A stretch of DNA of 37,646 bases from a virus: the UHGV virus genome UHGV-0149030. One strand, given 5' to 3'. The notes below the pieces were generated by a model. That model made no database searches, was not told where the DNA came from, and saw nothing but the letters and a program-made list of their open reading frames with translations. Position numbers and translations under genes: made by a program. This document shows positions 2,840 through 6,237 of this stretch, one piece after another. The stretch's first letter is position 1, and the number at the start of each line of letters is the position of its first letter.

Positions 2840-3487
2840 ATGATGGTTACTGAATACTTAAATATTTTTGCAGTACTTATACAATCTACTGCTACAGGAT
2901 ATTTTACCTATTTCTTAATTAAGAGTAATGACTTGTTAGTTTTATCAAATGCACAAAAAGAAGAAAAAATAGCAGTAGTATCAATATTGTCAGCTATTAA
3001 TTTAGCTGTATTTTTGTTAGCTCAAAGTATCATTTCTTACAATTTGTCGAATATGGAACCGTACATCCAACAAATTGCGGCTGCAATACTATCATTTGTA
3101 TTAGTATTAGTAATTGGGTTGTTCGTTTTACCTAAAGCAATTTTATCTTTTTTTTCTTGGATAAATAAACTTAGAAAAAAGAAGGGTAAGCTAGAATTTA
3201 CACATAGAGCAATTAGAGATACTGCGTTGGATAATTCTTATCATCAATACATCTATGTTTTTGATTTTGCAAATAACTATATCGCTTCTGGCTATTTAAA
3301 TGTTTATCAATATAATACGGATGAATACAATGAGTTACTATTATATGCACCAAAAGAACCTGAAAAAAGACGAACTGTCGAAGCAGTTGAAATTCTATTT
3401 AAAAATAATGATATAAATATTTTGATTGATTATGAGAAAAAAGTGAAATTGTATATAGTGCCTATGGACGAGGCTGAGGGCGAGTAG
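2840..3487 (+). CDS. Polytopic membrane protein (3 predicted TM helices plus a ~110-aa C-terminal soluble domain). Moron, candidate superinfection-exclusion or abortive-infection protein.
   Basis: Hydrophobic segments LNIFAVLIQSTATGYFTYFLI, IAVVSILSAINLAVFLLAQSII and IAAAILSFVLVLVIGLFVLP. It lies between int and the immunity genes. A TATAAT box sits at 2795..2800 upstream. Confidence 0.6.
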   Translation: MMVTEYLNIFAVLIQSTATGYFTYFLIKSNDLLVLSNAQKEEKIAVVSILSAINLAVFLLAQSIISYNLSNMEPYIQQIAAAILSFVLVLVIGLFVLPKAILSFFSWINKLRKKKGKLEFTHRAIRDTALDNSYHQYIYVFDFANNYIASGYLNVYQYNTDEYNELLLYAPKEPEKRRTVEAVEILFKNNDINILIDYEKKVKLYIVPMDEAEGE

Positions 3488-3580: not shown

Positions 3581-4345
3581 TTATTTAATTCGTAGTGGTT
3601 GACCAGGATAAAAAACAGAGGTGTCAATGCCTGGATTCAATGCTAATAGTTGTTCTAAGGTTAAGCCATTTCTTTCAGCTACTTGTCGAGCTCCTTCACC
3701 GCTTCGTACTTCGTCATATACAGGTTGTTCAGATTCAGAGCTTTGAGGTTGTTCAATTACTGAAGATGATTGAGTAGATGGCAATGGTTGTTGTGATGTA
3801 GAAATTTCCGTGTCAACAGCAGCTAATTCGGTGTACAGGTCTGTTAACTTATTTGCTTCAGCAGTATAAACATCTGTTAGTTTATTTGCCCAAGATTCAT
3901 ATAATGAATAGTCGTCTTTATTAGAAAGTTGTATGCTTGCCATTTCCGAAATTCCAGTATTTGAAATATCTGCTAATTTTCCTATTTTAGAGTTTAAAAC
4001 CTCAGCTAATGCTGAAACATTGCCTTTTATAGGTTCTCCTTCATTTCGCAGTTCTTCAATCAATATAGGTGTAGTTGTAGTCAACTTTTGAGTATAAGTC
4101 TCTAAAATTTGGGAATAGGTAGACCCGCCTAATTCTTTTTGTGTTGTTTCATCTGTTTGTGTACTTGAATAATGTATAGTTGATGACTCACTACTTGAGC
4201 TATTATTTTTTTTAGAATCAGAAATATCTTTCTTTTCAGATGTAATTGAGGTAGAACTTGAGTTTTGCTTTGAAACCTGTTTAGTTTCGTTAGAACAAGC
4301 AGTCAGCAGTAATAATGATAAACCTAAAGTAACAATTTTTTTCAT
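3581..4345 (-). CDS. Secreted lipoprotein with a Ser/Thr-rich linker and a C-terminal LysM domain. Moron, candidate Ltp-like superinfection-exclusion lipoprotein.
   Basis: MKKIVTLGLSLLLLTAC is a signal peptide with lipobox LTAC. The C-terminus DEVRSGEGARQVAERNGLTLEQLLALNPGIDTSVFYPGQPLRI is LysM-like. The ORF track starts at 4363 (MRINLK); MKKIV at 4345 is the likelier start. Confidence 0.65.
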   Translation of the reverse strand: MKKIVTLGLSLLLLTACSNETKQVSKQNSSSTSITSEKKDISDSKKNNSSSSESSTIHYSSTQTDETTQKELGGSTYSQILETYTQKLTTTTPILIEELRNEGEPIKGNVSALAEVLNSKIGKLADISNTGISEMASIQLSNKDDYSLYESWANKLTDVYTAEANKLTDLYTELAAVDTEISTSQQPLPSTQSSSVIEQPQSSESEQPVYDEVRSGEGARQVAERNGLTLEQLLALNPGIDTSVFYPGQPLRIK

Positions 4346-4432
4346 TTTTAAATTAATCCTCATTTCTGTTATAATATGCTTGTCAGTAAATCTCTAAATG
4401 AGATTGAAGTCCGTGTCCCCACACGGGCTTTT

Positions 4433-4855
4433 TTACTGTGCGTAAGAATAATTCTTTTTGAAGTATGAATGACAAACATCGAAACATTCCGTTCTTAAAT
4501 TACTATTTATAGAATAAAAATCAATAAAATTATCTAATTTAAATTGTGATTCATCCGTTAGTTCATTTTCTACAAAAATGTTTAATAGAATTATAATTGC
4601 TATTTTATTAGCTTCTGTCTCGAACTTTGAATGAAAAGTAATAGAGCTATCATATAACGTTGTATATTCGTAGTGTGAAGCGATAAAATGGCCTAGCTCA
4701 TGTGCTAAATGAAAGGCTTCCGCTCTATCCTCATGTAATTTTTCGTTTAAAAATACGATTCTTGGCTTAGGATAGTAGAATCCAGATTCTTCCATTTCCA
4801 TATAAACCAATTTTAAATTATAATCACTTAGCAATTCTTTTAATTTTAAATACAT
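4433..4855 (-). CDS. immA: ImmA/IrrE-family zinc metalloprotease (anti-repressor protease)
   Basis: HEXXH motif HLAHELGHFIASH. It is co-oriented with and immediately downstream of the XRE repressor gene, the immR-immA arrangement known from ICEBs1 and Firmicutes prophages. Start taken at MYLKLKELL (4855); the longer ORF to 4948 overlaps the repressor gene. Confidence 0.75.
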   Translation of the reverse strand: MYLKLKELLSDYNLKLVYMEMEESGFYYPKPRIVFLNEKLHEDRAEAFHLAHELGHFIASHYEYTTLYDSSITFHSKFETEANKIAIIILLNIFVENELTDESQFKLDNFIDFYSINSNLRTECFDVCHSYFKKNYSYAQ

Positions 4856-4871
4856 ACCAACACCGCTCCAA

Positions 4872-5192
4872 TTACTCGTTTTCTTCCAAAGCTTTAGCGA
4901 TAGCAATTGCTTTACGCATTGTCTCCTTTGATATTTCTTTTCCATCAAATGAAAATACAGTATCGTCTTCTGATAAATCTACTTTTTTTGGAGCTTCTTT
5001 GAGTTCTCTTCCTAGAAGGTAGTCAACAGATACATTAAAATATTCTGCTACTTTTTCTAAATCTTTTGCTTTAGGATCATTTGTTTTCCATTTATAAAAT
5101 AAGTTCTCACTAAATCCTAGCTCAAGAGCTACTTGTTTAACATTTTTATTTTTCGCTTTTGCTAAAGATTTTATCCTCTCAAACAGTGACAT
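4872..5192 (-). CDS. XRE-family HTH repressor (CI/ImmR-like) with no S24 peptidase domain
   Basis: HTH segment VKQVALELGFSENLFYKWKTNDPKAKDLEKVAEYFNVSVDYLLG. Start chosen at MSLFERIK, preceded by GGAG; the ORF track extends to 5207. Confidence 0.8.
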   Translation of the reverse strand: MSLFERIKSLAKAKNKNVKQVALELGFSENLFYKWKTNDPKAKDLEKVAEYFNVSVDYLLGRELKEAPKKVDLSEDDTVFSFDGKEISKETMRKAIAIAKALEENE

Positions 5193-5237
5193 AAAAGCAT
5201 TCTCCATTCTAAAACAAATAAAAAGTACCTGAACTTA

Positions 5238-5266
5238 TATATTTTTGTTGACAAATGTATAAGTTC
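5238..5266 (+). promoter_or_regulatory. Sigma-A-like promoter TTGACA-17-TATTAT (rightward). A mirrored TTGACA is on the minus strand at 5419..5424.
   Basis: Hexamers and spacing read directly. The region is AT-rich, so this assignment is tentative. Confidence 0.35.
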
Positions 5267-5282
5267 GTATTATTATTTGTTT

Positions 5283-5302
5283 GTAAGTTAATTAGATAGA
5301 AA
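5283..5302. promoter_or_regulatory. Operator half of a 20-bp perfect inverted repeat, GTAAGTTAATTAGATAGAAA (left copy)
   Basis: Exact reverse complement present at 5437..5456. Contains a palindromic TAATTA core. Confidence 0.6.
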
Positions 5303-5436
5303 AAAAAGCAAACTAAAAACACACCTTACAGCATTAAGTTTGGCGACCGAGTGCAAAATAAAGGCTTTGTTATAGGCTTATTTAACTATGTATTTATAGT
5401 ATATGTTTGGGTACTTTTTGTCAACATATTTTTATA

Positions 5437-5456
5437 TTTCTATCTAATTAACTTAC
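5437..5456. promoter_or_regulatory. Operator, right copy (TTTCTATCTAATTAACTTAC) of the 20-bp inverted repeat
   Basis: Perfect reverse complement of 5283..5302. Lies 28 bp upstream of the cro-like start. Confidence 0.6.
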
Positions 5457-5483
5457 TAAATACTATAGAAAGGAGTATAGACT

Positions 5484-5675
5484 ATGCCAGATACGTCAGT
5501 GGGCAGAACGAAAATTCGCGAGTATTTCGATGATAAGAAAATATCATTAACATCTGTAGCAACATATTTTAACATTCCAAAACAGGACTTAAACGATTAT
5601 CTTTCTGGAAAAAATCAAAGTAAAAAGGCTCACGAAACACTAACGGCAATTATTGAATACTACAAAATCAGATAG
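5484..5675 (+). CDS. Cro-like small HTH regulator
   Basis: 63 aa, divergent from the repressor, RBS AAAGGAG. HTH-like segment ISLTSVATYFNIPKQDLNDYLSG. Confidence 0.6.
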   Translation: MPDTSVGRTKIREYFDDKKISLTSVATYFNIPKQDLNDYLSGKNQSKKAHETLTAIIEYYKIR

Positions 5676-5687
5676 GAGGTGTAAAAA

Positions 5688-5957
5688 ATGGAAGTGATTT
5701 TAACTCCAGAAAATGAAGCTTCTCTAAGAGATTTTGTACACGGAATTATTGTTGATGAAATAGAAAAAGCACGAAGAGATACCGCAGTTGATAAGCGAGT
5801 CTTAAATCAAACAGAGATTGCAAAATATTTCAATGTTTCCACAACAACAATAAGGGAATGGGAGAAGCTAGGTCTTCCACATGGATCAGTAAGTAAACAA
5901 GGGAAGTTCTACGACAAAGAAGAGTGTCGCAGATGGCTTCTATCACAAAAAAGATAA
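5688..5957 (+). CDS. Excisionase/AlpA-like HTH DNA-binding protein (Xis candidate)
   Basis: NQTEIAKYFNVSTTTIREWEKLGLP resembles the HTH_17/excisionase family. Strong RBS GGAGGTG. Confidence 0.5.
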   Translation: MEVILTPENEASLRDFVHGIIVDEIEKARRDTAVDKRVLNQTEIAKYFNVSTTTIREWEKLGLPHGSVSKQGKFYDKEECRRWLLSQKR

Positions 5958-5991: not shown

Positions 5992-6171
5992 ATGAAAAAA
6001 ATATATCACTTAAGACGTATAGCGGCATTGCTAATCGTTTTTGGCTTGGGGCTTTTAGTAGGTGGCAATATTGGTCCATTAATCCAAAACATATATATAG
6101 CAGCTTTTATCATTTGGTTGCTCTATTACGATTTAGCGTTGGAAGATCGAGAAGTAAAAAAACAAAAATAA
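5992..6171 (+). CDS. Small membrane protein (59 aa, 2 TM), not in the ORF track (below the length cut-off)
   Basis: RBS AGGGAGGAAATAAT then ATG. MKKIYHLRRIAALLIVFGLGLLVGGNIGPLIQNIYIAAFIIWLLYYDLALEDREVKKQK. Confidence 0.5.
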   Translation: MKKIYHLRRIAALLIVFGLGLLVGGNIGPLIQNIYIAAFIIWLLYYDLALEDREVKKQK

Positions 6172-6237
6172 AGACCCACTTCGACGGCCATCAAAGTAGG
6201 TCAATTACAAATATCAAATTCAAGGAGAGTGTACCAC

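Follow-up and report, generated by a model that had tools for sequence, protein, structure and literature searches.

The window analyzed here (the whole 37,646-nucleotide stretch of the virus genome UHGV-0149030) derives from a temperate phage of mosaic make-up that belongs to the Enterococcus faecalis gene pool. It contains a repressor/protease operon read leftward and a cro-like/xis-like operon read rightward, separated by a 291-nt intergenic region. The genes on either side are as follows.

1473-2654, - strand: tyrosine integrase gene
4433-4855, - strand: ImmA-like metalloprotease gene (140 aa from the ATG at 4855, HELGH in the translation)
4872-5192, - strand: ImmR/cI-like HTH repressor gene (106 aa, ATG at 5192, Shine-Dalgarno [SD] sequence GGAG from 5205 to 5202)
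5467-5675, + strand: SD sequence GAAAGGAG (5467-5475) and cro-like 63-aa HTH gene (5484-5675)
5688-5957, + strand: excisionase/MerR-like 89-aa gene, second gene of the rightward (PR) operon

The repressor matches the Pfam domains HTH_19 (E = 9e-9), HTH_26, and HTH_3, as well as PHROG 8 (E = 8e-22), these being generic XRE-type HTH families. Its length of 106 aa, as given in the original prediction, agrees with the ATG at 5192, the SD sequence, and an alignment in which the start codon lines up with those of the homologues. The adjacent co-oriented gene encodes an M78 metalloprotease with an HExxH motif, matching Peptidase_M78 in Pfam (E = 1e-9) and PHROG 87 (metallo-protease, E = 3e-24). Judging by these domain matches, the region serves a temperate phage as its lysis/lysogeny (immunity) switch, with a repressor of the ImmR-like and a protease of the M78/ImmA-like kind, which upholds the earlier assignment to the ImmR type. 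The cro-like product matches PHROG 1337 (DNA-binding protein, E = 1.4e-8) and is 76% identical to its homologue in SEsuP-1, and the product of the next gene matches Pfam MerR_1 and PHROG 66 (excisionase and transcriptional regulator).

Several minor features accompany these genes. Only two terminator-like hairpins were found between positions 4400 and 6200: one at 4406-4431 (+), just beyond the stop codon of the protease gene, and one at 6175-6200 (-), following a small membrane-protein open reading frame (5992-6171) on the opposite strand. A predicted 215-aa membrane protein is encoded between the integrase and protease genes on the opposite strand (2840-3487, +), and a 260-aa protein resembling a lipoprotein, with a LysM domain at its C terminus, is encoded at 3581-4363 (-); both are possible lysogenic-conversion or exclusion genes. 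Within the cro-like gene, at 5515-5561 (+), there is a sub-threshold Rfam match (E = 4.6e-4) to a domain-5 model of plastid group II introns, with 27 bits where the gathering score is 61, and this match inside a coding sequence is probably due to chance.

In the Enterococcus phages SEsuP-1, 4995_2, and phiEG37K, the intergenic region is recognizably conserved at the DNA level and the rest of the module is not. Homologues were collected using the invariant core described below as a search pattern, followed by a similarity filter with blastn/nhmmer; the first pattern was loose, and about two-thirds of its matches were chance hits that were filtered out. The final set comprises 95 window-type leaders, 60 of them distinct, from IMG/VR, metagenomes, Enterococcus ratti, “Candidatus E. 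ferrettii,” Ligilactobacillus salitolerans, and a Streptococcaceae metagenome-assembled genome. A sister family with the same gene order and layout, and with repeat arms of the form [G/A]TAAGCTAA...TTAGCTTA[C/T], includes phages phiFL1A-3B, Efs 1-1-1, EH-TP1, vB_ElaS_B1578, Listeria phages LM 4-11-1 and LP-030-2, and Psychrobacillus phage Spoks; 100 further IMG/VR loci and three named phages yielded 77 distinct sister-type sequences. Overall, well over 100 phages of Enterococcus, Listeria, and their relatives share this layout. Among the homologues, the repressors have at least six kinds of recognition helix and the cro-like proteins fall into five types; the two sets are reassorted with each other, and the only protein conserved across all members is the protease.

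Predicted convergent promoters and the segment between them

The intergenic region contains the following features, listed from left to right.

5212-5282, no strand: type-specific segment around PR, with inverted repeats 5212-5224/5270-5282 and 5231-5244/5253-5266 and the left AAAAAGTACC...TATA element (5220-5239)
5248-5276, + strand: PR-like promoter (TTGACA at 5248-5253, 17 nt, TATTAT at 5271-5276; predicted start ~5283)
5283-5302, + strand: left arm GTAAGTTAATTAGATAGAAA, the predicted first 20 nt of the PR transcript and 5' strand of the putative helix
5303-5395, no strand: conserved core, predicted to be transcribed on both strands, with an A-tract (5299-5307), GTTTGGCGAC (5338-5347), and CTTATTTAACTATG (5377-5390)
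5396-5424, - strand: PL-like promoter of the repressor operon (TTGACA from 5424 to 5419, 17 nt, TACTAT from 5401 to 5396; predicted start ~5389, within CTTATTTAACTATG)
5437-5456, + strand: right arm, the exact reverse complement of GTAAGTTAATTAGATAGAAA, upstream of PL and 3' strand of the putative helix

The PR-like and PL-like sites match the consensus in 11 and 10 of 12 positions, respectively; they are the only sites in the intergenic region with at least 10 matches, and they face each other. The terminator scan detected no terminator-like site between either promoter and its gene. The predicted leaders of ~200 nt (PR) and ~197 nt (PL) would overlap by ~107 nt. At the same places, sites with at least 9 of 12 matches are present in all 59 scorable window-type homologues for PR and in all 59 homologues scored for PL, and in 58 of the 59 the left arm begins 6 to 7 nt after the end of the PR -10 box. 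The two -35 boxes stand out in the alignment as invariant islands amid variable sequence. The same pair of promoters is found in the seven sister-type phages that were inspected (phiFL1A, Efs 1-1-1, EH-TP1, B1578, Listeria phages LM 4-11-1 and LP-030-2, and Psychrobacillus phage Spoks).

The strong promoter-like sites thus point inward and do not form the divergent, back-to-back arrangement of ICEBs1. The switch promoters are better predicted to be convergent, as in coliphages 186 and P2, because both are kept in the 59 homologues and in the seven distant phages; the original prediction had offered this face-to-face layout as one of two alternatives. Its leftward TTGACA at 5424 was found as described, with TACTAT 17 nt further on. 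For the rightward site, the elements and spacing (TTGACA-17-TATTAT) were correct but the start at 5238 was not, the site running from 5248 to 5276; likewise, TTGTTGACAA and its inverted partner TTGTCAACA begin at 5246 and 5418 rather than at 5236 and 5417.

The two copies of the 20-mer are its only matches in the 37.6-kb window, even when 3 mismatches are allowed, and none of 100 dinucleotide-preserving shuffles gave two matches, in line with the earlier claim of an exact and nonrandom inverted repeat. The start-to-start spacing of 154 and the TAATTA core (5289-5294 in the left arm) were also as claimed. The repeat extends imperfectly to 28 nt (5280-5307/5432-5459, 89% complementary).

Within the core, GTTTGGCGAC is invariant in all 60 sequences and lies in a small hairpin (5331-5354 in the window), which reads CGUU-UGGC-GACG in the window type and CGUU-GGGG-AACG in the phiFL type. 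In Listeria phages LM 4-11-1 and LP-030-2, EH-TP1, and B1578, the loop of this hairpin is inverted and its flanks are not, so the function of the motif seems to be independent of orientation, as would befit a contact point between sense and antisense RNAs or a double-stranded site. Such an inversion would be neutral for either of these but not for a strand-specific structured RNA. The loop variants include CGTTGGGGAACG in the phiFL type and CGTTCCCCAACG in LP-030-2; in the relatives, the core motif is located at positions 673-689 of locus L208 and is also present in L210, L213, and L214.

Neither RNAalifold, run on 34 and on 60 sequences, nor an exhaustive search for stacked column pairs revealed a robust conserved helix in the interior of the core. 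No small open reading frame of any length was found there on either strand, and in an Rfam 15 scan of positions 5100-5600 (E <= 10), the intergenic matches were at chance level (14 to 16 bits against gathering scores of 37 to 100). A leftward small RNA ending at the U8 tract complementary to the A-tract at 5299-5307 was considered and rejected: its stem has only 6 AU-rich pairs and was not flagged by the terminator scan, and the few wobbles favor the + strand.

Segments that change with the repressor type

The recognition helices of both the repressor and the cro-like protein differ between phage groups that share the arms and the core. Identities between homologues with the same or different repressor types are as follows.

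Repressor start to PR -35: 0.88 for the same type, 0.45 for different types
PR spacer: 0.94 for the same type, 0.43 for different types
PL spacer: 0.90 for the same type, 0.50 for different types
Left arm: 0.97 for the same type, 0.86 for different types
Core: 0.94 for the same type, 0.79 for different types
Right arm: 0.92 for the same type, 0.76 for different types

An operator is expected to change with the specificity of its repressor. The promoter-proximal segments do so (0.43 to 0.50 between types) and the arms do not (0.76 to 0.86), so, on this comparison, the arms are not operators tied to immunity type. The most likely sites of repressor action are the type-specific repeats overlapping PR and the PL spacer, not the 20-mers. 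In the window, the operator-like repeats are AAAAAGTACC...TATA at 5220-5239 and at 5400-5419, the latter in the PL spacer, together with GAACTTATA / TATAAGTTC around the PR -35 box; the corresponding repeats in relatives are ACTCTATAGAGT in SEsuP-1, ACACTATAGTGT in 4995_2, and TAGCTTTTAAGCTA in Listeria phage LM 4-11-1. The inverted partners AAAAGTACC (5221) and GGTACTTTT (5410) had been placed correctly in the original prediction and belong to the longer 20-nt, 85% inverted repeat formed by 5220-5239 and 5400-5419. These mirrored AAAAGTACC elements are better operator candidates than the 20-mers, and DNA looping, if there is any, is more likely to occur between them than between the 20-mers, for which it had originally been suggested.

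A further inverted repeat, AAACAAATAAAAA / TTATTATTTGTTT (5212-5224/5270-5282), brackets PR and ends beside the repressor SD sequence. It is group specific yet self-complementary, with a duplex energy of -8.2 kcal/mol for a group's own pair versus -4.4 kcal/mol for pairs across groups, and could represent either a pair of operators or a helix of the repressor leader. Its interpretation as a mirror RNA helix of the repressor leader was rejected; the repeat covaries between groups without strand bias and, in the absence of such a bias, is treated here as a type-specific repeat at the DNA level.

The cro-like types are freely reassorted with the repressor and operator types (loci L001-L123); one repressor type, for example, is paired with cro type 1 in L122 and with cro type 3 in L092. 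The operator-like segment on the PL side tracks the repressor and not the cro-like protein. For these two reasons, the 63-aa protein, unlike lambda Cro, may share no operators with the repressor.

Probable pairing of the arms and its alternatives

It is on balance probable, from the pattern of substitutions in the arms, that the 5' end of the PR transcript pairs over a long range with the site 14 nt upstream of the cro ribosome-binding site. Such a helix would be confined to the PR transcript, as the right arm, located upstream of PL, is absent from the predicted leftward transcript. Both arms would be included in one RNA if PR starts at the predicted position ~5283, and a start downstream of 5290 would truncate the helix.

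In the alignment of 60 sequences, the helix of 17 pairs was compared with 500 shuffles: 89.6% of the cells are paired against 82.9% in the shuffles, and the covariation score is 0.209 against 0.086, neither value being reached by any of the 500. Double changes are seen in 9 of the 17 pairs, and slid registers reduce the pairing to 28 to 46%. Pairing is therefore maintained by compensatory and wobble changes beyond what the shuffled and slid controls give. The helix is part of both the minimum free energy (MFE) and centroid folds of the window leader (z = -3.1) and of the MFE folds of 57 of the 60 window-type and 70 of the 77 sister-type leaders.

Covariation alone would fit two co-evolving copies of one protein site equally well, and it is only the wobble bias, whose events are partly non-independent, that separates RNA pairing from a protein-site reading. 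Among 30 well-aligned haplotypes, transition mismatches of the arms, read on the + strand, are G·U in 26 cells and A·C in 2, which by our count corresponds to about 19 independent events versus 2. In 35 of 39 haplotypes, the + strand version of the arm RNA duplex has the greater stability. To control for a strand bias of mutation at this locus, the operator-like palindrome of the PL spacer was scored in the same alignment, where it has 29 G·T and 23 A·C mismatches. Copies of an operator would be expected to diverge symmetrically with respect to the strands, as this palindrome does and the arms do not, and the bias in the arms against the unbiased control points to the rightward RNA as the molecule that pairs. 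The sister family has a weaker bias in the same direction (about 28 G·U versus 11 A·C, with three misaligned rows dropped).

Several observations speak against the helix. Two to three U·U or A·A mismatches are present in some groups, such as the 4995_2 type, and the core is conserved as sequence with no supported interior helix and with its central hairpin inverted in some relatives, a pattern that an RNA structured on one strand alone would not account for. In addition, each arm of the sister type (phiFL/Listeria) consists of two copies of an 8-bp palindrome, TTAGCTAA/TAAGCTAA, which looks like a site for a dimeric protein; being built from the TTAGCTAA palindromes, these arms could fold as local hairpins instead of the long-range helix. 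In phiFL1A, the palindromic arms are at 504-527 and 669-692 of locus L212, and similar arms are found in L208, L210, L211, and L214.

The original prediction regarded the 20-mers as repressor operators. In this scheme, they would be distal sites for the ImmR-like repressor, and a bound oligomer would loop out the intervening 154 bp, repress PR, and stabilize the control of PL. The left copy would indeed cover positions +1 to +20, a roadblock position directly past the PR -10 box, and the copies, exact in the window, covary in the homologues in the manner of co-evolving sites. Nevertheless, distal operators appear very unlikely: the arms remain 0.86 and 0.76 identical despite different recognition helices while other segments track the repressor type, a 26:2 excess of G·U over A·C on the + strand is unexpected for double-stranded sites (29:23 in the control), and a single window-type 20-mer is not itself a palindrome of the kind bound by an HTH dimer. 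Binding of another conserved protein to the arms, be it cro-like, excisionase-like, or a host factor, is distinctly unlikely. It would agree with the shape of the sister-type arms, whose two TTAGCTAA palindromes are typical of a dimer site, and with the fact that the right arm tracks the cro type (identity of 0.96 within and 0.74 between types), but this tracking can be explained by the adjacency of the right arm to the cro-like gene, the left arm is constant across cro types, and the wobble bias favors RNA. Besides the protease, moreover, no protein is common to all members. The three arm mismatches of the 4995_2 group are likewise accounted for by the left arm not following the cro type.

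It is highly improbable that the repeat lacks a function of its own, whether as terminal inverted repeats left by an old miniature insertion or as a by-product of recombination in a conserved linker where modules are exchanged. Although the block delimited by the arms is better conserved than the genes beside it, and the repressor and cro types reassort on its two sides, it encloses PL, the only credible promoter of the repressor. Pairing is kept through compensatory and wobble changes in two families whose arm sequences differ, and this requires selection on pairing. A miniature inverted-repeat element was also rejected on its own terms: there are only two copies of the arm in the 37.6-kb window, the flanks show no target-site duplication, and the repeat-bounded element occupies the same place in every homologue. 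Long-range pairing of the arms in the PR transcript is accordingly the reading preferred here.

Possible mode of action and related systems

The mechanism that we propose would start from a lysogen in which the repressor silences PR at the type-specific repeats and transcription from PL runs leftward into the repressor-protease operon, crossing the core and the silent PR on the way. After loss of the repressor, PR would fire rightward from ~G5283 into the cro-like and xis-like genes, and convergent transcription, together with sense/antisense pairing across the core, could then depress or shut off PL. The first 20 nt of the PR RNA would pair with 5437-5456 and close the 174-nt leader as one domain, leaving the SD sequence (5467-5475) free, 14 nt past the closing helix. 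Our best guess is that this helix would hide the 5' end of the PR RNA from 5'-end-dependent RNases; it might also act as an RNase III stalk of ~20 bp that detaches the leader from the cro message, in which case the detached PR leader would be antisense to the repressor leader.

Examples of long-range RNA duplexes with a role in sequestering a 5' end or as RNase III stalks are the lambda N leader, the RNase III-processed early RNAs of Bacillus phage SP82, the 5'-terminal stabilizer stem-loops of Bacillus mRNAs, and the 5'-3' fold-back of the hok and par/Fst mRNAs. Like these, the putative duplex of ~20 bp in the window, with a length of some two turns of helix, begins at or near the predicted 5' end and stops just before the translation start region, and the resemblance suggests a role in 5'-end protection or RNase III processing. 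Unlike them, the putative window helix would hold an opposing promoter and an antisense overlap in its loop.

A more far-reaching reading, which we consider rather unlikely, is that the core is an RNA-level switch module common to ImmR/ImmA phages of Bacilli with any repressor specificity. The leaders would recognize each other via the G-rich hairpin, the RNase III stalk would free the antisense leader, and commitment to lysis would be achieved by RNA and interference rather than by Cro competition. The several flips of loop orientation would then be harmless for a sense/antisense pair, and the free reassortment of cro types with repressor and operator types would fit such a switch.

In the switch of coliphages 186 and P2, the lytic and lysogenic promoters are arranged face to face (Dodd, Kalionis and Egan 1990; Callen, Shearwin and Egan 2004, both as cited in PMC3675496 and PMC11318856). 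The window resembles that switch in that its predicted promoters face each other and give overlapping transcripts, the lytic promoter is closer to the consensus (11/12 versus 10/12), and repression of PR is proposed to relieve interference on PL. It differs in that its repressor is a short XRE protein with an ImmA-type protease rather than 186 CI; in the overlap of ~107 nt, with both predicted leaders ~200 nt long and a core conserved irrespective of immunity type; and in the conserved helix that is predicted to join the 5' and 3' parts of the lytic leader.

Convergent promoters have already been predicted in two ImmR/ImmA-type prophages of Clostridium clostridioforme (PMC11318856), so the predicted convergence in the window represents a known design. 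In ICEBs1, PimmR and Pxis are described as divergent (PMC11318856). The window shares with ICEBs1-type ImmR/ImmA modules the HTH repressor, the co-oriented M78 protease, the integrase, and the small HTH and excisionase-like genes on the opposite side; in contrast to ICEBs1, its promoters are predicted to be convergent, and the ICEBs1 description contains no counterpart of the conserved leader and its putative closing helix.

A convergent sense/antisense system within the same host genus is the pheromone-controlled prgQ/prgX pair of the Enterococcus plasmid pCF10. The two systems have in common face-to-face promoters, predicted in the case of the window, with an overlap of one to a few hundred nt and the potential for both transcriptional interference and RNA-RNA pairing; the input is a pheromone in pCF10 and putatively repressor cleavage in the window.

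No description of the conserved leader element was found in the open-access literature searched on Enterococcus, phiFL, phiEf11, and ImmR/ImmA switches, and a convergent-promoter switch in which a long-range helix putatively closes a conserved leader element independent of immunity type seems not to have been reported before. To our knowledge, there is no mapped switch for this group of Enterococcus and Listeria phages, and the literature searched contains none. Temperate phages of these two genera drive gene transfer and prophage induction in pathogens. If the proposed organization is correct, a large group of them would use a 186-like convergent-promoter design combined with a conserved leader RNA element that is independent of immunity type, and the protein called Cro may not work as it does in lambda. 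The pairing of the arms would then provide a concrete and cheap experimental handle on the switch.

For annotation, the present case cautions that an exact inverted repeat near a repressor gene is not always an operator, and the signature GTAAG...GTTTGGCGAC...CTTAC is offered for locating the switch region in unannotated prophages. Among the sequence records, PQ554527.1, named Acinetobacter phage D2SVT, has the same switch region as Enterococcus phage vB_ElaS_B1578, the two having equal coverage and identity to the query, which suggests host mis-assignment or contamination in the former record.
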